This document shows positions 26,603-62,167 of a stretch of DNA of 64,000 nucleotides, piece by piece (within the stretch, counting starts at the first letter, position 1; the number at the start of each line of letters is the position of its first letter). The DNA comes from an uncultured Thermoanaerobaculia bacterium (lineage in GTDB: Bacteria > Acidobacteriota > Thermoanaerobaculia > Thermoanaerobaculales > Sulfomarinibacteraceae): positions 8,548-72,547 of the forward strand of contig CAYQTL010000005.1 of the NCBI GenBank assembly GCA_964420405.1. Reading direction: 5' to 3'. The position numbers and the translations under genes were made by a program. The notes beneath the pieces were generated by a model. It saw only the letters and a list, made by a program, of their open reading frames with translations. It was not told the origin of the DNA and searched no databases.

Positions 26603-26626
26603 CCCGTTCCCGATCCCGATCCCGAC
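26603..26626 (-). repeat. Hexamer array GTC-GGGATC-GGGATC-GGGAAC-GGGAA (G-rich on the aspS sense strand), G-quadruplex-capable
   Basis: Four G3 tracts separated by 3-nt loops, ending 17 nt upstream of the aspS ATG and running into the SD AAGGAGAGG. Sits in the 47-nt hisS-aspS spacer. Confidence 0.9.
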
Positions 26627-26632
26627 GGGAGA

Positions 26633-27892
26633 CTACCCCACGAGCACCCGCCGCACGGCATCCACGACGCCGTCCACCGGGACCGTCTCCTGCTCCCCCG
26701 CCCCCAGGTCCCGCACCACCACCGTACCGGCCTCGAGCTCGGCCTCGCCGACGATCAACACCGCCGACGCCCCCATCTTGCCGGCCCACTTGAGGCCCGC
26801 CTTGAGCGACCGTCCCGTGACCTCGGCGCGGACCGCGACGCCGGCGTCCACCAGCCGTCGAGCGATCCCGAGCGCCCCGGCCGCGGCATCGTCGCCCACC
26901 GGCAGCACCGCCACGGTGGGCCGCTCCAGCACCCGGGCGCGGAAGCTCTCCGGCAGGACGTCGACCAGTCGGTCCTCGCCGATGGCGAAGCCGATCCCTG
27001 GCACCGCCGGTCCGCCGAGGTCGGCGATCAGGCGGTCGTACCGGCCACCGCCGCAGATCACGGTGTCCTCTCCGAGCTCCGGGGACACCACCTCGAAAAC
27101 GGTCCGCAGGTAGTAGTCGAGACCGCGCACCAGCCGCGGCGCACGCCGCACCGTCAGGCCGACCGCCTCCAGCCCCCGCTCCACCTGCGAGACGTGCTCA
27201 CGGGCGGCATCCGACACGACCTCCGCGATCGGGGTGGTGTCGGCCACCAGCTCACGGCAGCGGGGGACCTTGCAGTCGAGGATCCGGAGCGGGTTCTCGG
27301 ACCACCGGCGCCGGCAGTCGGCGCACAGCTCGTCGCGGTGCGGCTCCAGCTCGGAGAGCAGCCCGGCGACGAACCTCGCCCGGTCGTCCGGATCGCCGAG
27401 GTTGTTGAGCACGATCTCGAGGTCGTCGAAGCCGAGCCGCTCGAGGAAGGTGGTCAGCGCCAGCAGCACCTCGACGTCGGCCTGGGGGGCGGCGGCGCCG
27501 AGCAGCTCGATGCCGATCTGCGAGAACTGCCGGTAGCGGCCGCGCTGCATCTTCTCGTAGCGGAACATGGGACCGAGATATGCCAGCCGGACCGGCTGCG
27601 GCCACTGCCCGAGGCCGTTCTCGAGGAATGCCCGGGCGACGCCCGCGGTGCCCTCCGGCCGCAGCGTCAGCGACCGTCCCTTGCGGTCGGTGAAGGTGTA
27701 CATCTCCTTCGACACGATGTCGGTCCCCTCGCCGACCGTGCGGACGAACAGCTCGGTGGGCTCCGCGATCGGGATCCGGATCTCGTCGTAGCCGAACCCT
27801 CCGAAGACGGCCGCCGCCTCCGCCTCCACCGCCGCCCACAGGCGCGTCTCCGGCGGCAGGATGTCGCGCGTGCCCTTGACCCTCTGGATCAC
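26633..27892 (-). CDS. hisS: Histidine--tRNA ligase
   Basis: VKGTRDILPPE, LRPEGTAGVARA, FRYEKMQRGRYRQFSQIG and GGGRYD motifs. The GTG start overlaps the upstream stop (GTGA). Confidence 0.95.
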   Translation of the reverse strand: MIQRVKGTRDILPPETRLWAAVEAEAAAVFGGFGYDEIRIPIAEPTELFVRTVGEGTDIVSKEMYTFTDRKGRSLTLRPEGTAGVARAFLENGLGQWPQPVRLAYLGPMFRYEKMQRGRYRQFSQIGIELLGAAAPQADVEVLLALTTFLERLGFDDLEIVLNNLGDPDDRARFVAGLLSELEPHRDELCADCRRRWSENPLRILDCKVPRCRELVADTTPIAEVVSDAAREHVSQVERGLEAVGLTVRRAPRLVRGLDYYLRTVFEVVSPELGEDTVICGGGRYDRLIADLGGPAVPGIGFAIGEDRLVDVLPESFRARVLERPTVAVLPVGDDAAAGALGIARRLVDAGVAVRAEVTGRSLKAGLKWAGKMGASAVLIVGEAELEAGTVVVRDLGAGEQETVPVDGVVDAVRRVLVG

Positions 27893-28437
27893 CTGTCCTC
27901 CCCGGCATCCGGCGCGGCGCCGACGCCCGCGGCGAGGTAACGGCTCTTGTAGTCCAGGTAGTTCCGGGCGGTGCGCAGCGCCCGCTCGGCCTCGTCGTCG
28001 GCGAGCGGCCGCTTGACCACCGCCGGCACCCCCGCCACCAGCGACCGCGGTGGGCAGCGGAACCCCTCCCGCAGCACCGCGCCGGCCGCCACGATCGACC
28101 CGGCGCCGACGTCCGCGCGGTTGAGCACCAGCGCGCCCATCCCCACGAGCGTCCCGCGTCGCACGGTGCAGCCGTGCAGCACCGCACCGTGGCCGACGCT
28201 GACCTCCTCCTCGAGGACCGTCGGGTAGAGACCCTTCTCGACGTGGACCACGACGCCGTCCTGGAGGTTCGACCGGGCGCCGATCCGCACCGGATGGATG
28301 TCGCCCCGGACCACGACGTGGAACCACAGCGACACGTCGTCGCCGAGCTCGACGTCGCCGACCACCACCGAGGTCGGCGCCAGGAACACCCGCGCGCCGA
28401 GGCGCGGCGTCAGACCTTCGAACGGCTGCACAAGCAT
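27889..28437 (-). CDS. Gamma-class carbonic anhydrase-like / left-handed beta-helix (YrdA/PaaY-like) protein
   Basis: Hexapeptide-repeat protein: VFLAPTSVVVGDVELGDDVSLWFHVVVRGD...IGARSNLQDGVVVH. Start uncertain (ATG 28437 or GTG 28461). Confidence 0.85.
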   Translation of the reverse strand: MLVQPFEGLTPRLGARVFLAPTSVVVGDVELGDDVSLWFHVVVRGDIHPVRIGARSNLQDGVVVHVEKGLYPTVLEEEVSVGHGAVLHGCTVRRGTLVGMGALVLNRADVGAGSIVAAGAVLREGFRCPPRSLVAGVPAVVKRPLADDEAERALRTARNYLDYKSRYLAAGVGAAPDAGEDR

Positions 28438-28678
28438 GTCGGAGACCGGCGGGACCGCCACCGCCGCAGGGCCGCGACGCTACCACAGGGCCGTCGCGCC
28501 CGGCAACCGCCAACGGCCACGAAACGCGGCAGTTGTGGATCGCGCCGCCAGAGCTGGCCGAGACAACAGCCCGCGATTCAATGAGATATGCCTAAGTATC
28601 TGAAAAATCACGGGTTCCGCGTATCGCCTGGGGACGCCCCCGAGGCTCCGAAGTCGTTGCGTTTACACTCGCTTAACC

Positions 28679-28714
28679 GGTTTTCCACAGGGTTTTCCGC
28701 AGGGTTTTCCACAG
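28679..28714 (+). promoter_or_regulatory. Three tandem DnaA-box-like 9-mers with 12-bp phasing (TTTTCCACA / TTTTCCGCA / TTTTCCACA)
   Basis: GGTTTTCCACAG-GGTTTTCCGCAG-GGTTTTCCACAG. Boxes at 28681-28689, 28693-28701 and 28705-28713. An inverted 7/9 box (CGATCCACA) lies at 28534-28542, and an AT-rich patch at about 28575-28615. Confidence 0.55.
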
Positions 28715-28803
28715 GCTCCGATGCCGCGGCGGGTCGCTGCCATGGGCTCAGGGAGGCAAGTGGTTGCCGCCCAGCGGGAAGCGCTCGAGCATCGCCAGCC
28801 GGA

Positions 28804-30507
28804 TCACGACCGCTCGAGAAGCTCGCGGGCGTGGGCGCGGGCGGCGTCTGTCAGCCGGTCCCCCGACAGCATCCGCGCCAGCTCCTCGACCCGCGCCGCC
28901 GCGCCGAGGGTGGTGACCCGGGTGACGGTCCGCTCGCCCGCCACCCGCTTGTCGACCCGGTGATGGCTCGCGGCCCGCGCCGCCACCTGCGGCAGGTGGG
29001 TCACCACCACCACCTGGTCGACCTCTGCGAGGCTCGCCAGCAGCTCGGCGAGGGCCGCCGCCGCGCCGCCACCGAGACCGGAGTCCACCTCGTCGAACAG
29101 CAGGGTGAGGGCGCCGCGCCGCGACCGGCGCCGCAGCACCGTCCGCAGCGCCAGGTGGATCCGCGACAGCTCGCCGCCGGAGGCGATCCGGGCCATCGGC
29201 CGTGGCTCCTCGCCGGGATTGGGCGCGATCAGCAGCTCGTACTCCTCGACGCCGTCGGGGCCGAATGCCACCGGTCGTCCGCCGCGCACCAGCGGCGACG
29301 ACGGATCGGGCCGGCACCGGCTGTCGAGGTCGAGCCGCGTGCCGCCCATGGCGAGGCCGTCGAGCACGCGGCCAACCTCGGCCGCCAGCTCGCGGCCGGC
29401 CGCCGTGCGGGCCGCCTCCAGCCGCCGCGCGACCGCGTCGTAGGCATCCAGCGCCTGCCGTTCGGCGGCGGCGGCCTCGTCGATCCGCTCCTCGACCGCC
29501 TCGAGCTCCGCCCGCTCCTCGAGCAGCCGCTCGCGGTGGGAGCGCACCTCGTCGACGGTCGCTCCGTACTTCAGCAGCAGCTGCTCGAGCCGGTGCAGCC
29601 GGCTCTCGACCTGCTCGAGCTCGGCCGGGTCCTCGGCGACGTCGGCCGTCATCCCCTGCAGCTCGCGGACCACCTCCTCGACCACCACCCGCGCCTCGCC
29701 GAGGCGGCCCGCGGCGTCGACCACCGCGAGGCCGCACGACGCCATCTCCCGCAGCTCGCGCTCGGCCTTCGCCAGCGCCTCCACCGCGGACCCGTCGGCC
29801 TCCGACAGGCGGCCGAGGACGGCACCGGACAGCTCCATCACCCGCACCGCGTGGCGCAGCAGCTGGCGCCGCTGCCGCAGGTCACGGTCCTCTCCGGGGG
29901 AGGGGTCGACGCCGTCGATCTCCGCGAGCTGGAACGCGATCGCGTCGAGCCGGTCGCGCCGTCCGGTGCGCGCGGTCCGCAGCGCCTCGAGTCCGTCGCG
30001 GGCGTCCCGCCACCGTCGCCACGCTCCCCGCAGCTCGTCGACCTGCGGCTCGAGGCCGCCGAACCGGTCCACCAGCTCACGCTGCACCGCCGGCTCGGCG
30101 AGGCCGTACTGCTCGTGCTGGCCGTGGATCGACAGCAGCTGGGGCGCGATCCGCTGCAGCGCGCCGGCGGTGACCGGCACGTCGTTGAGCCAGCACCGGC
30201 TGCGGCCCTCGGCGGCGACCTCCCGCCGCACCACCAGCTCCTCGTCGGCGTCGACTCCGAGCTCCGCCAGCGCCGCCTCGAGCTCGGGCGACGAGCCGGG
30301 GGCGAAGAAGCCCTCCACCCGCAGGCGGTCCTCGCCGGTGCGCACCATGTCGGTCTGGGCCCGCTGGCCGGCGAGGAGCTTGAGCGACTCCACCAGCAGG
30401 GACTTGCCGGCTCCGGTCTCGCCGGTCAGGGCCACGAAGCCCGGCTCGAGGTCGAGCTCGACCTCGTCGATGATCGCCAGACCGCGCACCCTCAGCCGCT
30501 CGAGCAC
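28804..30507 (-). CDS. recN: DNA repair protein RecN
   Basis: LRVRGLAIIDEVELDLEPGFVALTGETGAGKSLLVESL, long coiled coil, C-terminal ASGGELSRIHLAL...LLFDEVDSGLGG. Start GTG 30507 (alternative GTG 30534). Confidence 0.93.
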   Translation of the reverse strand: MLERLRVRGLAIIDEVELDLEPGFVALTGETGAGKSLLVESLKLLAGQRAQTDMVRTGEDRLRVEGFFAPGSSPELEAALAELGVDADEELVVRREVAAEGRSRCWLNDVPVTAGALQRIAPQLLSIHGQHEQYGLAEPAVQRELVDRFGGLEPQVDELRGAWRRWRDARDGLEALRTARTGRRDRLDAIAFQLAEIDGVDPSPGEDRDLRQRRQLLRHAVRVMELSGAVLGRLSEADGSAVEALAKAERELREMASCGLAVVDAAGRLGEARVVVEEVVRELQGMTADVAEDPAELEQVESRLHRLEQLLLKYGATVDEVRSHRERLLEERAELEAVEERIDEAAAAERQALDAYDAVARRLEAARTAAGRELAAEVGRVLDGLAMGGTRLDLDSRCRPDPSSPLVRGGRPVAFGPDGVEEYELLIAPNPGEEPRPMARIASGGELSRIHLALRTVLRRRSRRGALTLLFDEVDSGLGGGAAAALAELLASLAEVDQVVVVTHLPQVAARAASHHRVDKRVAGERTVTRVTTLGAAARVEELARMLSGDRLTDAARAHARELLERS

Positions 30508-30591
30508 GGCACGGATCGTACCATCGGAGACCACTGCGGACGGTGTACCCTCGTCGGGTCCGGGACCCGCTCCCGGCCCCGGAGGTGCCCG

Positions 30592-30963
30592 ATGCCGACC
30601 CCCGTCGTCCGCCACATCGACCAGCCCCCCGCCGGCGAGGTGGAGCGCGCCACCGGCGCCACCATCCAGGTGCTGCTCGGCCCCGACGACGGCGCGCCAC
30701 GGTTCGTCACACGCCGGTTCACGATCGCGCCGGGTGGCCGTATCCCGCGCCACCGCCACGCCGACATCGAGCACCAGCAGGTGGTGCTCGAGGGCCGCAT
30801 GACCCTCGGGCTGGACGGTCGCGCGATCGACGTCGGGACGGGCGACTGCGTGTACATCCCGCCCGGGGTCGCCCACTGGTACGAGAACCGCGGCGAGGAG
30901 CCGGTGCGCTTCCTGTGCATCGTACCCGTCACCGACGGCTACCAGACCGAGTGGCTCGACTGA
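30592..30963 (+). CDS. Cupin domain protein
   Basis: PGGRIPRHRHADIEHQQVVLEGRMTL...GDCVYIPPGVAHWYEN. SD GGAGG lies 6 nt upstream of ATG 30592. Confidence 0.85.
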   Translation: MPTPVVRHIDQPPAGEVERATGATIQVLLGPDDGAPRFVTRRFTIAPGGRIPRHRHADIEHQQVVLEGRMTLGLDGRAIDVGTGDCVYIPPGVAHWYENRGEEPVRFLCIVPVTDGYQTEWLD

Positions 30964-31045
30964 CGTCCGTCCCCGCACGTCGTCCCGAACGTCTCGCCGG
31001 ATGCGGCCTCCCCATGCCGTCATCCTGAGGATCGGGACGACGCGC

Positions 31046-31672
31046 TCAGAGGTCCGCGCAGCGGACGAGAACCTCCCGCCACGCCCGGTCGACCTCGGAG
31101 GCGAGCGCCTCCGGCGGACCCGAGTTGTCGACCACGACCTGCGCCAGGTCGCGCTTGTGGTCGATCGGCTTCTGGGCCGCCAGCAGGGCACGGGCGCGGT
31201 CGGCCGGCATGCCCCGCCCCACCGCGCGCTCGAGCTGCTGCTCGGGCCGGCACCAGACGACCGCCACGACGTCGTAGTCCCGCCACGAGCCGGTCTCCAC
31301 CAGCAGCGCCGCCTCGACCACCGCCGGGCCCTGTGGGCGAGCGGCGAGCCAGGCCGCGACGCGCCCGCGCACCAGCGGATGGACCGCTTCCTCGAGCCGC
31401 CGTCGCTCGCCGGCGTCGGCCGCGACCAGCGCGGCGAGCGCCTCGCGGTCGACCCCCCCGTCCGGGTCGAGCGCCTCCGGTCCGAACAGCCGCCCCACCT
31501 CGGCGGCACCGGCGGCGCCGGGGCGGTACAGCTCGTGGACGACACGGTCGGCGTCGAGCACCGGCACCCCGCGGGCAGCCAGCTCCGCGGCCACCGTCGA
31601 CTTGCCCGAGGCGAGGCCGCCCGTCAGACCGACGGCGCAGGCTCGACGCTCGCGACCGGAATCAGGTCCCAC
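31046..31672 (-). CDS. coaE: Dephospho-CoA kinase
   Basis: VGLTGGLASGKSTVAAELAARGVPVLDADRV...HPLV. The start may be slightly downstream of 31672, which overlaps the folD end. Confidence 0.9.
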   Translation of the reverse strand: MGPDSGRERRACAVGLTGGLASGKSTVAAELAARGVPVLDADRVVHELYRPGAAGAAEVGRLFGPEALDPDGGVDREALAALVAADAGERRRLEEAVHPLVRGRVAAWLAARPQGPAVVEAALLVETGSWRDYDVVAVVWCRPEQQLERAVGRGMPADRARALLAAQKPIDHKRDLAQVVVDNSGPPEALASEVDRAWREVLVRCADL

Positions 31673-32588
31673 GACGGGCCTTCGCCGCAGCGAGGGTGTT
31701 CGCCATGAGCATGGCGATCGTCAGCGGCCCGACGCCGCCCGGCACCGGCGTGATGCGGGCCGCCTTCGGCGCCACCGCCGCCACGTCGACGTCGCCGGCG
31801 AGCACCGCCCCACGCTTCTCGAACGCCCGCATCTTCTTCTCGTTGCCCGGGAAGAGCCGCTCGACGTCGGCGCGGTCGGTCACCCGGTGCATCCCCACGT
31901 CCACCACCACCGCCCCGTCCCGCACGTGGTCTGGCCCGACCAGCGCCAGCCGCCCGACCGCGGCGATCAGCAGGTCGGCCTCGCGCGTGACCGCCGCCAG
32001 GTCGCGGGTGCGGGAGTGGCACAGGGTCACGGTGGCGTGGGCGTGCAACAGCAGCGCCGCCATCGGCTTGCCGACGATGTCGGAGCGGCCCACCACCACC
32101 GCGCGGCTGCCCCGGACCTCGATCCCCTCACGCCGCAGCATCTCCATCACGCCGGCCGGCGTGCACGGGGCGATACGGTGCCGTCCTTGCTGCAGGAGGC
32201 CGGCGTTGCGGGCGGTGAGGCCGTCCACGTCCTTGGCGGGGTCGATGCGGTCGATCACGGCGTGGGGGTCGAGGTGGCCGGGGAGCGGCAGCTGGACCAG
32301 GATCCCGTCCACCTCCGGGTCGGCGTTGAGCCGCTCCACGACCCGTTCGACCTCGCGCTGGGCGGCGCCGGCGCCGAGCCGGTGGACCTCGGATCGCATA
32401 CCGAGCTCGCCGCACGTCCGCGCCTTGGAGCCCACGTAGACCTCGGACGCCGGGTCGTCGCCCACCAGCACGACGTCGAGTCGGGGCGCCACGCCCCGGC
32501 CGGCGAGCACCGCCACCTCGTCGGCGACCTCCTGCTGGATCTCCCTGCCGATCCGCGTCCCGTCGAGCCTCTTCGCGTCGTCGATCAC
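31662..32588 (-). CDS. folD: Bifunctional methylenetetrahydrofolate dehydrogenase/cyclohydrolase
   Basis: LDVVLVGDDPASEVYVGSK...QLPLP...VVGRSDIVGKPMAALL...TPVPGGVGPLTIAML. GTG start preceded by GGAGACGGAGGAGACG. Confidence 0.96.
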   Translation of the reverse strand: MIDDAKRLDGTRIGREIQQEVADEVAVLAGRGVAPRLDVVLVGDDPASEVYVGSKARTCGELGMRSEVHRLGAGAAQREVERVVERLNADPEVDGILVQLPLPGHLDPHAVIDRIDPAKDVDGLTARNAGLLQQGRHRIAPCTPAGVMEMLRREGIEVRGSRAVVVGRSDIVGKPMAALLLHAHATVTLCHSRTRDLAAVTREADLLIAAVGRLALVGPDHVRDGAVVVDVGMHRVTDRADVERLFPGNEKKMRAFEKRGAVLAGDVDVAAVAPKAARITPVPGGVGPLTIAMLMANTLAAAKARRGT

Positions 32589-33331
32589 CGTCTCCTCCGT
32601 CTCCGATCCCGATCCCGATCCCGATCCCGACGAGAGCCTCGCACGCCCTCGTACAGCGTCGCCACCCCGCCGGTGAGGGGCGTCGCACGCACTCGGCCCA
32701 GCCCGGCCGCCTGGAGCCGCTCACACATCGCCCGTCCCGACGGAAACCGCTCCACCGAGGCGGGCAGGTAGGCGTACGCCGCCGGGTCGCCCGAGACCAG
32801 GCGCCCGACGAGCGGCGGCACGAACCGCGCCCACGCCCGCAGCGCGGGTCCCAGCGGGCCGCCGGGCCGCGAGAGCTCCAGCACCAGCACCACGCCGCCG
32901 GCCGCGGTCACCCGCACCAGCTCGGCGAGCCCGTGGTCCAGATCCTCGAAGTTGCGGACCCCGAACGCCACCGTCACGGCGTCGAAGGTGCCGTCCGCGA
33001 ACGGCAGCGCGAGCGCGTCGGCCGCGGCCAGGGCGATGTCCGATCCGGAGCGCGCGACCTTCGGACGGGCGCGGGCCAGCATCGGCAGGCAGAAGTCGCA
33101 GCCGACCGCGCCGTGGCGCCCGGCGCACGCCAGCGCGACGTCGGCGGTACCCGTGCAGACGTCCAGCAGCCGCGCCGGCCGCGACGCCGCCACTCGCCTG
33201 GCCAGCAGCCGCCGCCAGCGCACGTCGGAGCCGAGCGACAGCAGCCGGTTGAGCAGGTCGTACCGGTGGGCGATGCGCGCGAACATGCCGCGGATGTCGT
33301 CCGCCCGCCGGGCGAGCAGCTCCTCCCGCAT
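32585..33331 (-). CDS. ubiE: Demethylmenaquinone/ubiquinone C-methyltransferase (UbiE/MenG family)
   Basis: FARIAHRYDLLNRLLSLGSDVRWRR, LLDVCTGTADVAL, FGVRNFEDL and LVLELSRP. The ORF runs on through the hexamer array, giving a ...RRDRDRDRDRRRRRR tail. Confidence 0.88.
   Translation of the reverse strand: MREELLARRADDIRGMFARIAHRYDLLNRLLSLGSDVRWRRLLARRVAASRPARLLDVCTGTADVALACAGRHGAVGCDFCLPMLARARPKVARSGSDIALAAADALALPFADGTFDAVTVAFGVRNFEDLDHGLAELVRVTAAGGVVLVLELSRPGGPLGPALRAWARFVPPLVGRLVSGDPAAYAYLPASVERFPSGRAMCERLQAAGLGRVRATPLTGGVATLYEGVRGSRRDRDRDRDRRRRRR
32601..32633 (-). repeat. Hexamer array TCGTC-(GGGATC)4-GGAG on the folD sense strand, G-quadruplex-capable
   Basis: Four perfect GGGATC units at 32605-32628, ending 19 nt upstream of the folD GTG. 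The array lies inside the 3-prime end of the ubiE reading frame. Confidence 0.9.
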
Positions 33332-33379
33332 CGGCGGAGGGTAGCACGCCGGCCCGGCGCGATCCCGACCCCGAGCGCT

Positions 33380-33928: not shown

Positions 33929-33937
33929 CGACCCTCC

Positions 33938-35518: not shown

Positions 35519-35571
35519 GATGGCTCATTGTACCCCGCGGCGGCCGCGGAGGCCGACGGCCGGCGGCGGGC

Positions 35572-45614: not shown

Positions 45615-45705
<91 letters not shown>

Positions 45706-45729
45706 CCAGCTCTTTGTCACGTCACGTCC

Positions 45730-45819
<90 letters not shown>

Positions 45820-45968
45820 GTGCTCCCCGGAGCCCGGGATGGAGCCCGGGCCTTGTGCATCGCCGCTCGCCGAACCGTGTCAGGCCCGGAAGGGAGCAGC
45901 ACTCAGGCGAACAACGGCGAGTGCCGCAAGTCGCCTGGGCTCCATCGCGGGCTCCGCGTCCTCCACGG

Positions 45969-46005
45969 CCCGACCCCCGCCCCGATCCCGATCCCGATCC
46001 CGACG
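45969..46005 (-). repeat. Orphan hexamer array TCGTC-(GGGATC)3-GGGGCGGGGGTCGGG (G-rich on minus strand)
   Basis: Three perfect units plus three more G-tracts. Lies downstream of the GT gene stop (46089) and convergent with the tRNA-Ser pair. No annotated gene follows it. Confidence 0.85.
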
Positions 46006-46088: not shown

Positions 46089-47189
46089 TCAGGTCGGACC
46101 GGGATCCACCTCTCCGATCCCCATCAGGCCTGCGATCGCCGCCGCCGCCTCCGCCGCGCCGCCGACCTGTTCGGGCATCCGCGGCAGCGCGAGCAGCTCC
46201 TCGAGCCGGGCCATCCAGCCGCCGCTCTCGAGCTCATCCCGGTCGATCCGTGTGGCGGACATCTCCCGCTCGACCCAGCCCGACACCGGCGCGGACTCCG
46301 GGAACCGGTCCCGGGCGACGTAGGCGAACGGGACCCCGGCGGTCCACGTCTCGGCGACCGTCGAGTAGCCGAGCTTGCCGACCACCAGGTCGGCGTCGCG
46401 CACCAGGTCGGGGTGGAAGTGGACGGATCGGTGCGGCAGCGGGATCAGCCCCTGGGAGCGCTCGATCGAGGGTGCGCCGCCCGGCACCACCACCACCGCA
46501 CGACGCTGGGACCGCAGCCTTTCGATCTCACGGGGGAGCCCGGGCACGCCCCCCATCGAGACCAGCACCATCGGGCGGTCGGGGGGGATGCCGAGCCGGC
46601 GGCGCACCTCGCCCCGCGGGCTGCGCCGCCGCCGCGCGACCGGCGGTACCCGGAGGGCGCCCGCCGCGGGCTCGCAGAAGGGCTCGGCCTGGATCCTGAG
46701 CGTGGCGGCCGCGCTCACCGGTGCGAGCCGCTCGGCCCACGCCCCGAGCTCGGAGCCGTAGGCCCGGTAGATGAAGTCCCACGTGAAGTTCTCGAGCAGC
46801 ACGGCGGGGACACCCATCCGCGCCGCCAGGCCGAGCCCGAGGGGCGCGATGTCCGCCACGATGACCTTCGGTCGCAGGTGTCCGAGGTCGGCGGCGAGAC
46901 GGCCGACGCCCTCCCAGCGGCATCCGATCACATTCTCGAGTCGCGCCGCGGTGGCGGCGGCATCCTCGTCGAACGGACCCCGCTGGACGAGGCCCACGTC
47001 GACCTCCACCGGGTGGAGGCGCAGGTCGATCTCGGCCGGGAGCGCGTCGGTGAAGAACCACTCGGGGACGGTGGTGGCGATGTCGACCCGCAGCCCCGGG
47101 ACGAGCCCGACGAGTGCCTCGATCACGGCGGAGGCACGCGCCGCGTGACCGAAACCGTGTGGCGACACCACGAACAGAGCCGAGAGCAC
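46089..47189 (-). CDS. Glycosyltransferase, GT-B fold (GT1/GT28-like)
   Basis: LFVVSPHGFGHAARASAVIEAL..., C-terminal LVVGKLGYSTVAETWTAGVPFAYV. GTG 47189 chosen and the start is uncertain. Confidence 0.75.
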   Translation of the reverse strand: MLSALFVVSPHGFGHAARASAVIEALVGLVPGLRVDIATTVPEWFFTDALPAEIDLRLHPVEVDVGLVQRGPFDEDAAATAARLENVIGCRWEGVGRLAADLGHLRPKVIVADIAPLGLGLAARMGVPAVLLENFTWDFIYRAYGSELGAWAERLAPVSAAATLRIQAEPFCEPAAGALRVPPVARRRRSPRGEVRRRLGIPPDRPMVLVSMGGVPGLPREIERLRSQRRAVVVVPGGAPSIERSQGLIPLPHRSVHFHPDLVRDADLVVGKLGYSTVAETWTAGVPFAYVARDRFPESAPVSGWVEREMSATRIDRDELESGGWMARLEELLALPRMPEQVGGAAEAAAAIAGLMGIGEVDPGPT

Positions 47190-50051: not shown

Positions 50052-50405
50052 CCCGACATCCTACCGCGAGCCTGCGTCCGAGGCTGGTCCCGATCACCTT
50101 CCCGCCGCCGCTCCCGCTCCCCGTTCCCGATGCTCGCTGTCCGCGGCGCTCGCGGCCCACGGCCGCGGCGACGGCCCCGGGTGACCGAGTGGCAGCACGC
50201 CGTCGCCCACCTCTCCTGGCGGCGGCCTTCCATCCGTCCACTCGGGGGGAGCCCCGCTCGCTCCTCCCCATGGCAACCGGCTCGGCTCCCGGCTCGCTGC
50301 GACCCGGTCGATGGGGACCTCCCGTCGGGACCGGGATCGGAGCCGGCAACGGGGAGGTGGCCGCCCGCCAGCACGGGCGCCGGCCGTCCGCGCTACCCTG
50401 CACCC

Positions 50406-52567: not shown

Positions 52568-52582
52568 GACCACCTCCGGGTC

Positions 52583-52607: not shown

Positions 52608-52677
52608 GTCCCGTCCACGCTGCATGGGTTGTCGAACCGGGCGGGAGCGGCCTCCGCCGGCCCCGCCCGGGCGGAGC

Positions 52678-53241: not shown

Positions 53242-53276
53242 TGTCAGGAATCCTGACAGTGACCGGCTGCTATACT
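53242..53276 (+). promoter_or_regulatory. 17-bp perfect palindrome TGTCAGGA-A-TCCTGACA adjacent to a TATACT -10-like box upstream of ubiX
   Basis: Palindrome at 53242-53258. TATACT at 53271-53276, 37 nt before the ubiX ATG. Related GTCAGG half-site within CTGACGTGACAGTCAGG at 53164-53180. Confidence 0.45.
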
Positions 53277-53312
53277 CCGGGGACGTGCGCGCGGCGGCGC
53301 ACGACCGATCCG

Positions 53313-55482: not shown

Positions 55483-55506
55483 GGGAGCGGGCGGCGGGAG
55501 GCGCAG

Positions 55507-56349
55507 ATGGCACGATCCGTCACCGTCCCTGAGGTCCGCGGGGCCAAGGGCGAGCGCACGCTCGTCATGCTCACCGCCTACGACGCCCCGACCGCCCGCT
55601 GGGGTGAGGCCGCGGGCGCCGACCTGCTGCTGGTGGGTGACTCGCTGGCGATGGTCGTCCTCGGCCACGACACCACCCTCGAGGTCACCCTCGATGAGAT
55701 GATCCACCACGCGCGCGCGGTGAGCCGCACCGCCCGCCGCTGCCTGGTGGTGGGCGACCTGCCGTTCGGTTCCTACCAGGCGTCGGTGGAGCAGGCGGTG
55801 GGCTCGGCGGTGCGGTTCCTGAAGGAGGCGGGGGTCCACGCCGTCAAGCTCGAGGGTGACTTCCCAGACCGCGTCGAGGCGATGGTGCGGGCCGGCATCC
55901 CGGTGATGGGTCACGTCGGCCTGACGCCGCAGTCGGTCCGCGCCTTCGGGGGCTACCGGGTCCAGGGACGCCGCCCCGAGGACGCCGAGGGGCTGCTCGC
56001 GGCGGCGCTGCGGCTCGAGCGCGCCGGCTGCTTCGCGCTGGTGCTCGAGGGCGTGCCCGCCGAGGTGGCGTCGGTGATCACAGAGGCGTTGGAGATCCCC
56101 ACCGTCGGCATCGGCGCCGGGCCGGGCTGCGACGGCCAGGTGCTGGTGGTCCACGACCTGCTGGGCATGTCGCCACCGCCCCGACCCCGCTTCGTTGCCC
56201 CCTACGCCGACCTGACGGAGGCCGCGGTCGCCGCCTTGCGGAGCTGGGCCGACGACGTCCGCGCCGGCCGGGTGCCGACCGCCGAGCAGTCCTACCACCT
56301 CGCCGGCGACGCCGCGGCCCGCTGGCGTGCCGACCACTCGGAGGCCTGA
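55507..56349 (+). CDS. panB: 3-methyl-2-oxobutanoate hydroxymethyltransferase
   Basis: MLTAYDAPTA, LLVGDSLAMVVLGHDTT, VKLEG, GHVGLTPQS, IGIGAG..CDGQVLV. Confidence 0.96.
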   Translation: MARSVTVPEVRGAKGERTLVMLTAYDAPTARWGEAAGADLLLVGDSLAMVVLGHDTTLEVTLDEMIHHARAVSRTARRCLVVGDLPFGSYQASVEQAVGSAVRFLKEAGVHAVKLEGDFPDRVEAMVRAGIPVMGHVGLTPQSVRAFGGYRVQGRRPEDAEGLLAAALRLERAGCFALVLEGVPAEVASVITEALEIPTVGIGAGPGCDGQVLVVHDLLGMSPPPRPRFVAPYADLTEAAVAALRSWADDVRAGRVPTAEQSYHLAGDAAARWRADHSEA

Positions 56350-56350
56350 G

Positions 56351-57208
56351 ATGGACGTGGTCCGGACGGTCGCCGCCGCGCGGGACCGCCGCCGGGCGGA
56401 CCGCGGAGCGGGCCGGCGGGTGGCGCTGGTACCGACCATGGGAGCGCTCCACGACGGCCATCTTTCCCTCGTCCGGCGCGCCGGCGAGCTGGCCGACTCG
56501 GTGTGGGCGTCGGTGTTCGTCAACCCCGCCCAGTTCGGTCCCGGCGAGGACTTCGAGCGCTACCCGCGCAGCCTCGACCGCGACCTCGAGCTGCTCGCGG
56601 CGGCCGGCGCCGCAGTGGTGTTCGCACCCAGCACGAGCGAGATGTACCCACGTCCTCCGGTGGTGTCGATCTCGTTCGAACCCCTCGACCGACCGCTGTG
56701 CGGCGCCCACCGGCCCGGCCACTTCGCCGGCGTCGGCCTGGTGGTGGCGAAGCTGCTTCACATCGTGGAGCCCGACGTCGCCGTATTCGGCCAGAAGGAC
56801 GCCCAGCAGGCGCTGCTGATCCGCAGGCTGGTGGCCGATCTCGACCTTCCGGTCGAGATCGAGGTCGCCCCCACGGTACGCGAGCCCGACGGCGTCGCCA
56901 TGAGCTCCCGCAACGCCTTGCTCGCGCCGCAGGACCGACGGGCGGCGCCGGCGCTGTTCCAGGCCCTGCAGGCCGGCCGGCGACTGGTCGAGGCGGGCGA
57001 GCGCGACCCGGCGGCAGTCACCGCCGCCATGCGGGCGGTCGTCGCCGCCGAGCCCCGGCTCGAGCTCGACTACGCCGAGTGCGTCGACCGCGAGGACCTG
57101 TCCACCCCCGCCACGGTCACCGGCCCGGTCCTGCTCGCTGTCGCCGCCCGCGCAGGCGGCACCCGCCTGATCGACAACCTGCCGGTCGACCCCCCGCCGG
57201 AGAGCTGA
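56351..57208 (+). CDS. panC: Pantoate--beta-alanine ligase
   Basis: [52 protein letters not shown]. Confidence 0.96.
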
Positions 57209-57209
57209 G

Positions 57210-57599
57210 ATGCTGCTGCGCACCTTCCTCAGAGCCAAGATCCACCGCGCCACGGTGACCGCCGCCGACCTGGACTACGTCGGCTCCGTCACCGTCGACG
57301 CCGACCTCTTGGATGCCGCTGACGTCGACCACCTCGAGCAGGTCGAGGTGTACGACATCACCAACGGCGCCCGCCTGACGACCTACGCCCTGCGCGGCCG
57401 GCGCGGCTCCGGCGAGATCCAGATCAACGGCGCCGCCGCCCATCTCGTGCGACCAGGCGACCTGGTCATCCTCGCCGCCTATGCCCAGCTCGACCGCACG
57501 GAGGTCGCCGGCCACGTCGCCCGGGTGGTGCTGGTCGACCCCTCGAACCGCGTCACCGAGGTGCGGGAGATGGGGCCGGGGGGTGCGGCGGAGGAGTAG
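57210..57599 (+). CDS. panD: Aspartate 1-decarboxylase
   Basis: [29 protein letters not shown] (G-S self-cleavage site), INGAAAH. Confidence 0.96.
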
Positions 57600-57617
57600 C
57601 GACCGGCTGTAGGATTC

Positions 57618-57788
57618 TCCCGCGTCCGCGCCCGTGTCCGTGCCCGGCGCGGCGGCAGACCGCAGCGCCGCCGACGGCTCCCACGATCCCGGTGACCACC
57701 GGCGCTGCCGCTGCCGCTGACACTCACGTCTGCCGCTGATCCCGTTGCTGCGCCCGCATCGGGCACGGACGGGGGCACGGACGCGGGA
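57618..57788 (+). repeat. 29-nt imperfect inverted repeat (C-rich arm 57618-57646, G-rich arm 57760-57788) bracketing 113 nt of the serS leader
   Basis: Position-by-position pairing gives 26 Watson-Crick pairs plus 1 G-U out of 29. Both arms have hexamer periodicity related to the GGGATC family. Confidence 0.85.
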
Positions 57789-57857
57789 ATCGGGGGCAAC
57801 CGACGCCACCGCGACGACGGTCGTGTACCATCTCCCCTCCGACGAGGAGGAGGCCCG

Positions 57858-59147
57858 ATGCTGCCCCGCGAGCTGCTGCGCACCGACCCGGACCGGATCC
57901 GCCGGATGCTGGCCGAGCGCCACACCGACGCGCCCTTCGACCGCCTGCTGGAGGTGGATGGGCAGTGGCGCTCGCTGGTGGTCGAGATCGAGGACCTGAA
58001 GGCGCGGCGCAACGCGGGCTCGAAGGAGATCGGCGAGCTGTACCGGCAGGGACGGCGGCAGGAGGCGGACGAGCGCAAGGCGGAGATGGGCCGGATCGGG
58101 GACGAGGTCAAGGCCGTGGAGGGCCGCGTCGTCGAGCTCGAGGCGGAGCTGAAGCGGCTCGAGCTGGAGATCCCCAACCTTCCTGACCCGCGGGTCCCGG
58201 TCGGTCGTGACGAGGGCGCCAACCGCGAGGAGCGCCGGTGGGGGACGCCGCCGTCGTTCGACTTCGAGCCGCAGGCCCACTGGGACCTCGGCCCAGCGCT
58301 CGGCATCCTCGACTTCGAGGCCGGCGTGCGGGTCGCCGGCGCCCGGTTCGCGGTCCTGCGTGGGGCGGGTGCCGCGCTGGAACGCGCCCTGGCTGCGTTC
58401 ATGCTCGACCTGCACACCCGGGAGCACGGCTACACCGAGGTGCTGCCACCCTACCTGGTCCACGCAGCGGCGCTGGAGGGGACCGGCCAGCTGCCGAAGT
58501 TCGCCGACGACCTGTTCCGGGTCGAGGGCGCCGACCTCTACCTCGTGCCGACCGCGGAGGTGCCGGTCACCAACCTCCACCGGGAGCAGATCCTCGCCGC
58601 CGACGAGCTGCCGGTCCGCTACTGCGCGTGGACCCCCTGCTTCCGTGCCGAGGCCGGCTCGTACGGCCAGGACGTCCGAGGCCTGATCCGCCAGCACCAG
58701 TTCCACAAGGTGGAGCTGGTGCAGCTGGTCGAGCCGGAGCGGTCGGACGCCGCCCTCGACGAGCTCACGGGCCACGCGGAGGCGGTCCTGCAGCGGCTCG
58801 GCCTGCCGTACCGGGTGGTCAGCCTGGCGACCGGTGACCTCGGGTTCTCGGCCGCGATCACCTACGATCTCGAGGTGTGGCTGCCCGGCCAGCAGCGGTA
58901 CCGCGAGATCTCGTCGTGCTCCTGCTTCGCCGACTTCCAGGCCCGTCGCGCCCGGCTGCGCTACCGGCCCGGCGACGGCGGCAGGCCCCGGTTCCTGCAC
59001 ACCCTCAACGGCTCGGGGCTCGCGATCGGCCGGACGATGGTCGCGATCCTGGAGAACTACCAGCGACCCGACGGATCGGTGGTCGTGCCGGAGCCCCTGC
59101 GGCCCTACCTCGGGGGGCTCGACGAGATCCGTCCCGCGACCGGCTGA
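57858..59147 (+). CDS. serS: Serine--tRNA ligase
   Basis: N-terminal coiled-coil arm, [21 protein letters not shown]. 429 aa. Confidence 0.96.
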
Positions 59148-59165
59148 ACGGCCCGCCGCGGGAGT

Positions 59166-59744
59166 TCAGGCCGCGCTCGGCGGCAGCTCCAGCTCGCCGG
59201 CGATCCGAGCCATCGCGTCACGCACGAACGCGACGTGCGCGTCGAGCTCGACGCCGAGCTCCGCGGCGCCGCGCCGCACGTCGTCGCGGTTCACCCCTCG
59301 CGCGAACGCCTTGTCCTTGAGCTTCTTCTTCACCGACTTCACCTGGACTTCGGCGATCGCCCTGTCGGGGCGCACCAGCGCGCAGGCGGTCAGGAAGCCG
59401 CACAGCTCGTCGACGGCGAACAGGGTCCGAGCGGCCAGCGAGTCCCGCGGCACCCCCATGTAGTCGGCGTGGGAGGCGACGATCCGCACCCACTCCTCGG
59501 GCCAGCCGCGCTGCCGCAGGATCCCGCAGCCGACGTGCAGGTGGGTGTCCTCGGTCGGGTTCCGCTGGTAGTCGAAGTCGTGGACCAGGCCGATCGTCCC
59601 CCACGCGTCCGGGTCCTCGCCGAACCGCTCGGCGTACGCCCGCATCGCCGCCTCGACCGCCAGCCCATGCTTGAGCAGGCTCGGGTTGTCGGTGAACTCC
59701 GTCAGCAACGCCCAGCCGTCGTCCCGCGTCGGTCGTCCGCTCAT
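59166..59744 (-). CDS. HD domain phosphohydrolase
   Basis: LLKHGLAVEAAMRAYA...GLVHDFDY...HADY. SD GGGAGG lies 5 nt upstream of ATG 59744. Confidence 0.85.
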   Translation of the reverse strand: MSGRPTRDDGWALLTEFTDNPSLLKHGLAVEAAMRAYAERFGEDPDAWGTIGLVHDFDYQRNPTEDTHLHVGCGILRQRGWPEEWVRIVASHADYMGVPRDSLAARTLFAVDELCGFLTACALVRPDRAIAEVQVKSVKKKLKDKAFARGVNRDDVRRGAAELGVELDAHVAFVRDAMARIAGELELPPSAA

Positions 59745-59779
59745 GCCGCCTCCCGGCCCCACGGTACACGAGTCGGCGT

Positions 59780-59829
59780 CCCGTTCCCGATCCCGTTCCC
59801 GATCCCGATCCCGATCCCGATCCCGACGA
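59780..59829 (-). repeat. Longest hexamer array: TCGTC-(GGGATC)4-GGGAAC-GGGATC-GGGAAC-GGGAC on the HD-gene sense strand
   Basis: Eight evenly spaced G3 tracts (59780-59824 on the plus strand as CCC), ending about 35 nt upstream of the HD-protein ATG. Confidence 0.9.
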
Positions 59830-60092
59830 CATCGTGTCTCCGCGACAGCGACACCGACGCACCCCCGTGGTGGACGGGACCGTCCCCTCCCGCAGACCCG
59901 GCCCGTTCCTCGAAGGCCCCGGGGTTCACACCCGGCCGTCTGCAGGCCGGTCCGGACCCCGGCGGCGGGTCACCCGCCGCCCTACCGGGTGACCCACGCC
60001 ATCGCCGGCAACGGCTGCGGCCCACCGGGGGGCCGGATGACGGTCATACGACATTTTGATAGGCTTTTCCGACGCATTTCGCAGAACAGCGC

Positions 60093-60121
60093 TTGACAGA
60101 TGCCGAAATCGACCCCAGAAT
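60093..60121 (+). promoter_or_regulatory. Candidate sigma70-type glnA promoter TTGACA-17 nt-CAGAAT
   Basis: TTGACA at 60093-60098 and CAGAAT at 60116-60121, in a locally AT-richer stretch about 30 nt upstream of the glnA ATG. SD GAAGGGA follows. Confidence 0.5.
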
Positions 60122-60151
60122 CCGCCGAACGACACCCGAAGGGACGTCACT

Positions 60152-61483
60152 ATGCCGACCAAGCCCAAGGATCTCCTCGCCACCGCGAAGGACGCGAACG
60201 TCCACTTCCTGCGCCTCCAGTTCACCGACATCGACGGCATCATCAAGAACGTGGAGGTGCCCGAGAGCCAGTTCGAGAAGGCTCTCGACGGCCAGATCAT
60301 GTTCGACGGCTCCTCGATCGAGGGCTTCACCCGGATCGAGGAGTCCGACATGCTGCTCGTGCCCGACCTGGAGACGTTCCAGGTCTTCCCGTGGGAGACC
60401 GGCCACGGCAAGGTCGGACGGTTGGTGTGCGACATCGCCAACCCCGACGGTTCGCCGTTCGCCGGCTGCCCGCGGACCGCCCTGCGGCGGGTGTGCGAGC
60501 GAGCCGCCGCGGCCGGGTACAGGATGATGGCCGGGCCGGAGGCCGAGTTCTTCCTGTTCCAGCGCGACGGCAACGGCCGTCCGACCGCCGTGACCCACGA
60601 CTCCGGAGGCTACTTCGACCTCACGCCGGTGGACCTCGGCGAAGAGGCCCGCCGGGACATCACGCTCGCCCTCGAGGCGATGGGGTTCGAGGTCGAGGCA
60701 GCGCACCACGAGGTCGCGCCGGGCCAGCACGAGATCGACTTCAAGTACGACGACGCCGTCACCACCGCCGACGCCATCGTCACCTTCCGGTTCGTGGTCA
60801 AGAAGGTCGCGCAGATGCACGATCTGCACGCGACCTTCATGCCGAAGCCGCTGGCCGGGGTCAACGGCTCGGGGATGCACACCCACCAGTCGCTGTTCAC
60901 GAAGACGGGCGACAACGCCTTCTACGACCCGAAGGGTGAGTGGGAGCTGTCCGACGTCGCGCGCGGCTACATCGGCGGGCTGCTCGAGCACGCCCGCGCG
61001 TTCGTCGCCATCACCAACCCGCTGGTCAACTCGTACAAGCGGCTCGTGCCGGGGTACGAGGCCCCTGTCAACGTCGCCTGGTCGGAGAAGAACCGCTCGC
61101 CCATGATCCGCGTGCCCGCACGCCGTGGCGTCGGTACCCGCTGCGAGGTGCGGATCCCGGATCCCTCCTGCAACCCCTACCTCGCGTTCGCGGCGATGCT
61201 GGCCAGCGGCCTCGACGGCATCGAGCGCGGCCTCGACTGCGGCGCACCGGTCAACCGCAACATCTTCGCGATGTCCCAGCGTGAGAAGCGGCGGCTCAAG
61301 ATCCACGCCCTGCCGGCCAGCCTCGCCGAGGCGCTCGACTTCCTGGAACGGGACGCGGTCCTGCGCGCCGCCCTCGGCAATCACATCTTCGACCACTTCC
61401 TCTACAACAAGCGGATCGAGTGGGCCGAGTACATCAAGGAGATCCACGACTGGGAGCTCGACCGCTACCTCGACCGCTACTGA
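60152..61483 (+). CDS. glnA: Glutamine synthetase, type I
   Basis: FLRLQFTDIDGIIKNVEVP, FDGSSIEGF, EAEFFLF, HHEVAPGQHEIDF, KPLAGVNGSGMHTHQS, NSYKRLVPGYEAP, NRSPMIRVP. 443 aa. Confidence 0.96.
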   Translation: MPTKPKDLLATAKDANVHFLRLQFTDIDGIIKNVEVPESQFEKALDGQIMFDGSSIEGFTRIEESDMLLVPDLETFQVFPWETGHGKVGRLVCDIANPDGSPFAGCPRTALRRVCERAAAAGYRMMAGPEAEFFLFQRDGNGRPTAVTHDSGGYFDLTPVDLGEEARRDITLALEAMGFEVEAAHHEVAPGQHEIDFKYDDAVTTADAIVTFRFVVKKVAQMHDLHATFMPKPLAGVNGSGMHTHQSLFTKTGDNAFYDPKGEWELSDVARGYIGGLLEHARAFVAITNPLVNSYKRLVPGYEAPVNVAWSEKNRSPMIRVPARRGVGTRCEVRIPDPSCNPYLAFAAMLASGLDGIERGLDCGAPVNRNIFAMSQREKRRLKIHALPASLAEALDFLERDAVLRAALGNHIFDHFLYNKRIEWAEYIKEIHDWELDRYLDRY

Positions 61484-61486
61484 TCC

Positions 61487-61509
61487 GAGCGCGCCTCGGA
61501 GGCGCGCTC
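61487..61509 (+). terminator. GC hairpin immediately after the glnA stop (no U-tract)
   Basis: GAGCGCGCC-UCGGA-GGCGCGCUC, 9-bp stem, 4 nt after the TGA. Confidence 0.35.
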
Positions 61510-61537
61510 GAGAGGGTTGGATGAGAGCAGGACGCAC

Positions 61538-61565
61538 ACGAACGGCGCCATGAGGCGCCGTTCGT
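61538..61565 (+). terminator. Intrinsic terminator-like hairpin downstream of glnA
   Basis: ACGAACGGCGCC-AUGA-GGCGCCGUUCGU (12-bp stem) followed by CGUUGUUGG. Confidence 0.55.
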
Positions 61566-62135
61566 CGTTGTTGGACGGAGGCCCCGGCGGCGGTGCCAGC
61601 TCATCAGCCAGGACGACACCCCATCAGCCACAGGATCGGCGGGCAGCCGCGGCGCATGGTCACCTCCGGCTGCTGGTCCACGCCGGAGCCGTGGACCGGC
61701 GGCGGGCCGGGGCGGTTCTCGACCTGTTCGACCAGGTCCGGGCGATGACCTGGCGGCTGCTCCACCCGCGGGGGGAGCACCGCCGCTGCACTGTGGTCAG
61801 AGATGGCCGCGCATCGGCGCGCGGAGGGCCTCCGACCCGCGTTTCGATCCAGCGACGCGTCACGGAGCCACTCGTGCGGGACGATCAGGTATTCAGACGA
61901 CGTCCCGTCGGCGAGCTCAGCGGGCGACGGAGTCGCACGCGAAGTCGCCGAGGGTGGGTGGTGGCGGGGCGGTGGGCGGGACCGACACGAGCATCTCCTT
62001 CCCGGTCGACTGGGCGATCCCCGGCCACCCGCGGAGCGGGGCACGGCGGCGGGCGGCGGTCGGGCGGAGCCGCCGCGGGCGCGGGCGCCGGGCCCGCGCC
62101 GGCCGGGGTCTCGCGCGCTCCAGGGTTGCGGCCGC

Positions 62136-62167
62136 CATCGGGATCGGGATCGGGAACGGGATCGGAG
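62136..62167 (+). repeat. Hexamer array CATC-GGGATC-GGGATC-GGGAAC-GGGATC-GGAG on the plus (sense) strand upstream of CDS 62208
   Basis: Four G3 tracts at 62140-62160, 47 nt upstream of ATG 62208. Same unit and same sense-strand orientation as the minus-strand copies. Confidence 0.9.

Follow-up and report, generated by a model that had tools for sequence, protein, structure and literature searches.

We analyzed a 64-kb window (64,000 nt, the whole stretch of DNA considered here; positions 8,548 to 72,547 of contig CAYQTL010000005.1, assembly GCA_964420405.1) from an uncultured Thermoanaerobaculia bacterium, in which short tandem arrays of the hexamer GGGATC recur near gene boundaries. These arrays probably represent a lineage-specific family of polar hexanucleotide microsatellites of soil Thermoanaerobaculales-like Acidobacteriota, capable of forming G-quadruplexes (G4s) and having at most a generic punctuation role. 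The 12-mer GGGAWCGGGAWC occurred 17 times in the window, which has a G+C content of 73%, compared to 0.06 occurrences expected from shuffled sequences, and the matches merged into five arrays of 3-8 GGGA(T/A)C units within the last 38 kb. A first-pass annotation, made from the letters alone, had proposed such a dispersed family, and its five canonical arrays were all present where it had placed them and with the sequences it had quoted. An extra 12-mer match is a two-unit copy at 24922 (+), on the antisense strand within aspS. By the names of homologs, the organism falls within Acidobacteriota, near metagenome-assembled genomes labeled Thermoanaerobaculales or Thermoanaerobaculaceae.

Position and anatomy of the five arrays

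The arrays, with coordinates in the window, are as follows.

Array 1: 26603..26626 (-), core 26606-26623; GTC-(GGGATC)2-GGGAAC-GGGA; 3 units + GGGAAGG; in the 47-nt hisS-aspS spacer
Array 2: 32603..32631 (-), core 32605-32628; TCGTC-(GGGATC)4-GG; 4 units; within the final 18 codons of the ubiE open reading frame (ORF)
Array 3: 45969..46003 (-), core 45984-46001; TTCGTC-(GGGATC)3-GGGGCGGGGGTCGGG; 3 units
Array 4: 59779..59826 (-), core 59783-59824; GTCGTC-(GGGATC)4-GGGAAC-GGGATC-GGGAAC-GGGAC; 7 units; in the glnA/HD divergent spacer
Array 5: 62137..62165 (+), core 62140-62163; CATC-(GGGATC)2-GGGAAC-GGGATC-GG; 4 units

All five fall outside conserved protein cores, occupying short untranslated gaps and one dispensable ORF tail. 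Given a coding density of ~91-96% in the gene calls of a 90%-identical relative, the placement of 5/5 arrays in spacers or an ORF tail is far from chance, and the earlier observation that no array of three or more units lies in a coding core was upheld. Four of the five end 16-44 nt upstream of a start codon, with the G-rich strand as the sense strand. The first base of array 1 lies 9 nt past the hisS stop and its last base 20 nt ahead of the aspS ATG (26585), and its four G-tracts continue into the aspS Shine-Dalgarno sequence GGAAGGAGAGG. The 3' end of array 4 is 33-38 nt ahead of the ATG of the HD-domain gene (59744), and that of array 5 is 44 nt ahead of the DUF6125 ATG (62208), so that distances of 33-44 nt replace the 35 and 47 nt given previously for these two genes.

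Array 2 ends 16 nt ahead of the folD GTG (32588) and had been described as intercistronic, like array 1. The hisS-aspS spacer position of array 1 was retained; the ubiE ORF, by contrast, has no stop ahead of array 2, which is therefore translated as the tail of UbiE (…RDRDRDRDRRRRRR, …GSRRDRDRDRDRRRRRR and …YEGVRGSRRDRDRDRDRRRRRR, each running to a stop). The last 18 of the 248 UbiE residues lie outside the Pfam UbiE domain, whose end is at residue 230; the stop codon of ubiE and the start codon of folD share bases in GTGA. With a unit of six bases, changes in unit number never shift the reading frame, which explains how the UbiE tail can accommodate the repeat and why the overlap of the ubiE stop with the folD start has persisted. 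The C-terminal tail itself, RRDRDRDRDRRRRRR (window 32585-32640), is repeat-encoded and highly charged, and is missing in an 82% relative (239 aa vs 248 aa).

Array 3 differs in that its G strand has no downstream gene, so it is not a leader. A glycosyltransferase gene (- strand) stops at 46089, 87 nt before the array, and the signal recognition particle (SRP) RNA, on the + strand, has its 3' end 40 nt short of it. Read in the direction of the SRP RNA, the array is (GATCCC)3, so the SRP transcript would bear the C-rich strand. The array that had been listed as an orphan copy at 45969-46005 is thus real, while the orphan label is not, and the claim that the G strand is in every case the sense strand of the gene downstream holds for the other four arrays, and for nine metagenome loci described below, but fails here. 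The idea of a leader element likewise fits the four arrays that precede starts and does not cover C-strand copies after stop codons and the SRP RNA.

The genes adjoining the arrays are the following.

aspS: 24822..26585 (-), cistron downstream of array 1
folD: 31662..32588 (-), cistron downstream of array 2
SRP RNA gene: 45844-45943 (+), found with Rfam; its 3' trailer bears the C-rich strand of array 3
HD-domain gene: 59166..59744 (-), downstream of array 4
DUF6125 gene: 62208..62735 (+), downstream of array 5

Pfam confirmed the identities of hisS, aspS, ubiE, folD, HD, DUF6125, glnA, serS and selB. Gene callers based on G+C content at third codon positions (GC3) yielded shadow ORFs at 73% GC, and a flank-coding test, Pfam and the relatives' gene calls were used instead. 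Rfam contained no family matching the arrays, and scanning the surroundings of arrays 4 and 5 for promoters and terminators gave nothing informative. Positions inside operons argue against promoter function, as the first-pass annotation had also held.

Directly after glnA, two strong GC hairpins (window 61483-62073; 9458-9872 in L123) suggest that the DUF6125 gene has its own transcript; they are kept in the relative. Beyond these hairpins, the window and the relative are unalignable (443 nt vs 268 nt), and this stretch holds another quadruplex motif (61952-61980) as well as a repeat of GGCGGCG (62045-62093).

Unit number and distribution in relatives

We identified a close relative, the Joint Genome Institute metagenome contig Ga0187647_1000179 (194 kb), via FolD and DUF6125 protein clusters. 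It is ~90% identical to the window at the DNA level over 40 kb and carries arrays at all five sites, with unit numbers that differ from those of the window at four of them.

ubiE-folD: window 4 units + GGAGAC; relative 4 units + GGGGAC; equal length, UbiE 248 aa in both
hisS-aspS: window 3 units; relative (L122) 6 units and ~50 nt of additional GC-rich hairpin-like sequence
HD: window 7 units; relative 4 units
DUF6125: window 4 units; relative 2 units, with a different 5' flank
SRP: window 3 units; relative (L210) 2 units

Orthologous copies in metagenomes had 3, 4, 5, 6 and 8 units. These differences are the behavior of a microsatellite, or variable-number tandem repeat, as the suggestion of variable length had anticipated, and slippage presumably drives the changes. 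Short-read contigs also end at repeats, inside array 4 (L124, 1-24), just after array 5 (L209) and in a (CTGCCG)n tract (L211), and length heterogeneity within populations would produce such breaks at arrays.

In more distant relatives, occurrence was patchy. Two contigs of one lineage from the same sample (L118 and L213; FolD/AspS 82-83% identical) keep the operon and have no GGGATC array at ubiE-folD or hisS-aspS; at the ubiE-folD junction of L118 the flanking bases are retained without the array, and UbiE is 239 aa long. A GC palindrome takes the place of the array at hisS-aspS in a 77-78% lineage (L120), and the SRP site of L211, the contig that ends in (CTGCCG)n, has no GGGATC. Other hexamers occur in this clade, including (TCACGG)9 upstream of ubiE (L118 9186-9239), (CCGCGT)n 12 nt past the aspS stop (L213 7307-7340) and, between two convergent genes, (CCGCGT)n…(CGCGGA)n in inverted arrangement (L118 16174-16441). 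Judged from these sequences, the whole clade appears prone to hexamer repeats in its spacers, each lineage having units of its own. Since relatives at 77-83% identity lack arrays at the same junctions and the neighboring genes have no common theme, specific control of the downstream cistron, which the first-pass annotation had favored, is unlikely.

At two junctions, the motif reappeared at greater distance. A scan for TCGTC-(GGGATC)2-GGGAWC in a metagenome collection lacking the Joint Genome Institute relative gave 84 loci, among them TCGTC-(GGGATC)3 at the hisS-aspS junction of L175 (63% G+C; AspS and HisS 74% identical) and TCGTC-(GGGATC)5 located 19 nt past the SRP RNA in L199 (61% G+C; neighbor proteins 47-66% identical). 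One motif with one flank therefore occupies the same two junctions (hisS-aspS and SRP) in lineages whose spacers are otherwise unalignable. The AspS identity matrix groups the window and L122 with L213, and L120 with L175, such that the hisS-aspS array requires at least two gains or at least two losses.

The simplest alternative is that these are neutral slippage repeats surviving where they are harmless, with orientation and polarity resulting from a small sample and from purifying selection on placement. We regard this as a real but minor possibility; the confidence we attach to the different readings overlaps, since they are not mutually exclusive. Neutrality would fit the patchiness among relatives and the unrelated hexamers that replace arrays at the same sites, the drift in unit number, which includes a two-unit copy unable to form a G4, and neighboring genes without a functional theme, as well as the lack of polarity of arrays in bacteria at large (among the matches listed). 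It fits less well with the recurrence of motif and TCGTC flank at two junctions in lineages with 47-74% protein identity and non-conserved spacers, or with a polarity that is significant within the flanked family, and five independent births of one hexamer in 36 kb would need a seeding or copying process.

The arrays could also be footprints of a mobile element, a miniature inverted-repeat transposable element or a repetitive extragenic palindromic (REP)-like element with the repeat at one end, and the conserved 5' flank in the window is consistent with this. Marine-sediment relatives carry a conserved ~80-nt unit, composed of two GC hairpins and TTCGTC-(GGGATC)n, at three or more loci (L131/L181/L203, L164/L181 and L173/L198). 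Within the window, however, the five copies share only ~5-8 nt of flank, have no terminal inverted repeats and show flank complementarity not above a cross-locus control, and no transposase lies nearby, which makes this origin highly improbable for them.

In detail, the marine-sediment unit comprises the hairpins aggcggggcattcatgccccgc… gcggggcgtcaacgccccgc, followed by TTCGTC-(GGGATC)3-8, and was found in L131, L164, L173, L181, L198 and L203, occurring twice within 900 nt in L181. From its sequence it looks like a composite REP-like element with a microsatellite at one end.

Flank, polarity and known repeat classes

Read across copies, the architecture of the family is 5'-YCGTC-(GGGATC)n-(often GGGAAC)-3'. 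We compared it with a background of 128 arrays from bacteria at large, which did not include the genome of the window; all background counts given here are among the matches listed. A GTC 5' flank preceded 6/7 arrays in the window and close relative, compared to 12/128 in the background. The unflanked pattern occurred across a great many phyla, mostly as a single copy per genome, and 100/128 background arrays were not within clear coding sequence (GC3 flank test), those that were coding encoding DPDPDP, GIGIGI or SGSGSG. GGGAAC at the 3' end was also considered as a signature (9/66 last units vs 5/123 middle units), but this trend is biased by the search pattern and was not relied on.

Polarity was assessed as the side of the array on which a gene boundary lies within 60 nt, counting arrays with a boundary on one side only. 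The boundary was 3' of the G strand in 19 and 5' in 7 of the de-duplicated TCGTC-flanked metagenome arrays, and 3' in 5 and 5' in none in the window and its relative, while the unselected background was balanced (3' 15 vs 5' 18) and had no preferred orientation relative to genes (17 G-strand leaders vs 19 C-strand leaders). At nine Pfam-verified metagenome loci, the G strand was the sense strand 6-56 nt before the start of acrB, tal, queA, trmD, dinB, uvrD, rplS, an F420H2-reductase-like gene and an ABC transporter gene, and a co-oriented ORF ends just upstream of the array in two cases (L127, before tal; L201, before trmD). On the other strand, the C-rich sequence was sense 4-51 nt past the stops of convergent genes, six of which look like real proteins, including phosphatase-like and LuxR-like proteins as judged from their C-terminal sequences, and followed the SRP RNA in three lineages, 19-40 nt beyond the RNA end. 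Polarity toward the gene boundary is thus supported by these sequence comparisons, but not proven.

The first-pass annotation knew of no described bacterial element of this kind, yet a close analog exists. Rehm et al. 2015 (PLoS One 10:e0144275, PMC4692102) described quadruplex-forming GGGAATC repeats in Xanthomonas and GGGGA(C/T)T repeats in Nostoc, with ~185 per genome, ~90% of them intergenic, and 2-26 units with a mode of four. In that study, 83% occurred at the same sites in Xcc and Xac with differing lengths, next to ordinary metabolic genes, without a link to mobile elements and with frequent inverted pairs; the repeats formed G4s in vitro and their function was unknown. The 5' side of the Xanthomonas G strand abuts the nearest ORF (28 nt vs 160 nt), and aligned ORFs show no coding-strand bias (PMC4692102). 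The paper makes no mention of hexamers or Acidobacteria, and our literature searches turned up no publication that deals with GGGATC arrays or with Thermoanaerobaculia repeats.

Both classes consist of dispersed, intergenic tandem repeats of a G3 tract plus an ATC-type sequence, with variable length, conserved position, ordinary neighbors and inverted pairs. They differ in that the GGGATC unit has 6 nt (frame-neutral) rather than 7 nt, making it a variant rather than the same repeat, that the family occurs in Acidobacteriota with a conserved YCGTC 5' flank, and that G4 formation is known in vitro for the Xanthomonas-type repeats but predicted in silico for the GGGATC arrays. Polarity also differs, since it is the 3' side of the GGGATC G strand that abuts the boundary, and the G strand is the coding strand between aligned ORFs (hisS-aspS, ubiE-folD). 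On current sequences, the best reading is that the family represents a form of the Xanthomonas and Nostoc GGGNATC repeats with hexameric units and mirrored polarity.

Other known classes are more remote. REP sequences and bacterial interspersed mosaic elements are imperfect palindromes that form hairpins, are mobilized by REP-associated tyrosine transposases (RAYTs) and are thought to shape mRNA stability or termination. Like them, the GGGATC arrays are short, dispersed, transcribed intergenic elements within and at the ends of operons, but they lack palindromy, being built of directly repeated tandem units, and we saw no RAYT gene. Rehm et al. also discuss the phase-variable contingency repeats of host-adapted pathogens. 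The units of these repeats, 1-5 or 7 nt long, shift the reading frame or promoter spacing in surface or virulence genes; contingency repeats share with the arrays a slippage-prone tandem structure near gene starts and unit numbers that vary between strains, whereas the GGGATC arrays are hexameric, have housekeeping neighbors (aminoacyl-tRNA synthetases, folD, trmD, rplS) and occupy intercistronic or leader sites. Natural Rho utilization (rut) sites, for which ~60-80 nt is the usual length, lack a tandem-repeat structure. The arrays are short tandem repeats (18-48 nt), but (GAUCCC)n resembles a rut site in its composition (C, 50%; G, 17%; one YC dimer per 6 nt) and in its position downstream of stops and the SRP RNA.

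Quadruplex-capable microsatellites are known, yet unexplained, in a few bacterial groups. With the GGGATC case come a further phylum, a six-base unit that preserves the reading frame, conservation of the flank and a polarity that is the mirror image of the Xanthomonas one. This contrast in polarity offers a handle on whether quadruplex repeats act through DNA or through RNA. If the polarity is true genome-wide, very GC-rich genomes may carry termination signals, or signals insulating the ribosome-binding site, that are built from repeats. In practical terms, assemblies from short reads break at the arrays, which offer markers ready for typing strains of uncultured Acidobacteriota.

Candidate roles and other repeats in the window

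We modeled RNA folding with quadruplex energies in ViennaRNA, and the minimum-energy fold of each array contained a three-tetrad G4, which lowered the minimum free energy by 4-12 kcal/mol compared to folding without a G4. G4Hunter maxima of the arrays were 1.36-2.12, and they make up five of the 15 canonical quadruplex motifs in the 64 kb. The quadruplex capability proposed earlier is consistent with these predictions, according to which the G-rich RNA, or the non-template DNA strand, should be able to adopt a quadruplex of three tetrads. We considered a stem around the array (…CGTC / GACG…) as a further family feature and rejected it, as pairing between the flanks of a locus did not differ significantly from pairing with flanks of other loci (window and relative, p ~0.19; metagenome set, p ~0.48), although the HD locus has a strong flanking stem (-22.5 kcal/mol).

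Because the G strand has its 3' end next to the closest gene boundary, mRNAs bear (GGGAUC)n just ahead of the ribosome-binding site, and by the same polarity transcripts that end at a convergent gene or the SRP RNA bear (GAUCCC)n just past their end. If functional, the arrays probably act as generic punctuation of transcription units rather than as gene-specific switches. The G-rich version would provide a structured, Rho-refractory spacer before the start codon, one that could not sequester the Shine-Dalgarno sequence through Watson-Crick pairing, and the C-rich, G-poor version, placed behind a stop codon or an RNA gene, could serve as a rut-like tract on which Rho loads; either version might also block exonucleases. 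Polarity would then reflect what transcripts tolerate or find useful.

Several points weigh against such a role and the reading that includes it. Both the G4 and the Rho roles are ones that we infer, and the arrays are dispensable in near relatives. The relative's copy at DUF6125 has only two G-tracts and so cannot form a G4, which weakens a functional reading, and the ubiE-folD array is read by ribosomes, such that a stable G4 there would be unwound or harmful. The opposite polarity in Xanthomonas implies that no single RNA-level logic covers both repeats. As for the polarity itself, the sample from the genome in question consists of five arrays in 64 kb, the metagenome set was chosen for its TCGTC flank and mixes taxa, and gene calls in that set come from a crude GC3 heuristic, with some neighbors verified.

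A stronger version of the punctuation reading, in which TCGTC-(GGGATC)n is a sequence-defined polar signal, both strands are under selection and junctions such as hisS-aspS and the SRP trailer are seeded or re-seeded by a sequence-directed process, appears quite unlikely. Here the G strand would act as a quadruplex, a Rho-proof spacer that keeps the ribosome-binding site free, and the C strand as a Rho-loading site built from repeats.

Alternatively, an RNA G4 next to the ribosome-binding site could tune translation or processing of the downstream cistron, with unit number as the tuning knob. Work from the Hartig lab, which Rehm et al. also cite, reportedly found that a G4 near the ribosome-binding site alters expression in E. 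coli. Four of the five arrays end 16-44 nt before a start, several continue into GGAG-type Shine-Dalgarno sequences and a three-tetrad G4 is predicted in each, all as would be expected of such a switch. We nevertheless consider it unlikely: the arrays are missing at the same junctions in relatives that retain the same operon, housekeeping targets (aspS, folD, trmD, rplS) are odd ones for variable tuning, one array lies inside a translated ORF tail, and one array in the window and many metagenome copies are not leaders.

The strand specificity would also suit an RNA-binding protein, and (GGGAUC)n beside the Shine-Dalgarno sequence could be a site array for CsrA-type repression. GGAU is the core of CsrA/Rsm sites, and the arrays present a GGA motif every 6 nt, adjoining the Shine-Dalgarno sequence. 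Known CsrA sites, however, show GGA in hairpin loops, unlike tracts predicted to fold as G4s; no csrA-like gene was seen in the ~150 kb examined, and C-strand copies after stop codons would be left unexplained, so that we regard this reading as very unlikely.

Lastly, each unit contains GATC, which had raised the idea of clusters for Dam-type methylation or SeqA-like binding, and the variable unit number could indicate phase-variable contingency loci. GATC is at expectation in the window (500 observed vs 489 from a Markov model), and the 6-bp spacing follows directly from the length of the unit. A palindromic site cannot account for strand polarity, six-base units cannot cause frameshifts, the neighbors are housekeeping rather than surface or virulence genes, and SeqA is, to our knowledge, confined to Gammaproteobacteria. 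Nothing in the data, which included no search for a methylase, supports Dam/SeqA action or phase variation of the arrays, and both are extremely improbable.

Degenerate one- or two-unit relatives of the arrays had also been proposed upstream of several genes. A mismatch-tolerant scan gave 39 matches vs ~6 in shuffles, but most are codon-periodic coding sequence, and we discarded the scan as evidence. The copy before the CYTH gene alone stood out; the others were mostly inseparable from background, with scores at the ubiE and selB leaders no higher than those of many matches in coding sequence. The copies considered, together with a spacer of related layout, are listed below.

CYTH-gene leader copy: 50322..50355 (+); CCGTC-GGGACC-GGGATC-GGAGCC-GGCAAC-GGGGA; 19/24 match
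selB-leader copy: 50078..50128 (-); CATC-GGGAAC-GGGGAGC-GGGAGC-GGCGGC-GGGAAGG; 17/24 match
ham1-ubiE spacer copy (ubiE leader): 33361..33372 (-); two units, GGGGTC-GGGATC; 18/24 match; weak membership
panD-serS hexamer structure: 57619..57800 (+); C-rich arm, (GCCGCT)3 and complementary G-rich arm; hexamers other than GGGATC

At the CYTH-leader site, L211 reads GTC-GGGAAC-GGCCAC-GGGATC-GGCGCC-GGGATC, and alignment with the same contig indicated that the selB-leader copy is a local 19-nt repeat expansion in the window. The selB/CYTH divergent spacer as a whole (window 50052-50405) aligned well with the 70% relative L211 (6747-7086) and poorly with the 90% relative L210 (6804-7138), which suggests, from sequence, that it was replaced or recombined in one lineage.

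Between panD and serS, the C-rich arm consists of CCGCGT/CCGTGT (57619-57646, from 20 nt past the panD stop) and the G-rich arm of GGGCAC/GGACGC (57760-57800, ending 58 nt ahead of the serS ATG). The two arms could pair as a ~28-bp stem, giving a repeat-built hairpin between co-oriented genes. Two loci in Thermoanaerobaculales metagenome-assembled genomes (L050 and L075) have (GATCCC)n…(GGGATC)n pairs in the same layout as this spacer.

Other non-coding features of the window include a 6S RNA (12765-12944, -; Rfam), a tRNA-Val pair (19394-19563, -) and, at 45615-45943 (+), a tRNA-Ser pair followed by the SRP RNA, an order (tRNA-Ser/tRNA-Ser/SRP) that also occurs in L199 and L210. An AT-rich island in the spacer between the Sua5 and hexapeptide-transferase genes holds three tandem 12-mers (window 28681-28713, -; L213 3217-3250) with TGTGGAAAA (= TTTTCCACA, DnaA box-like), and the tandem repeat is conserved in the 83% relative. 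By its sequence, this island could be a DnaA-binding cluster or the site of another regulator.

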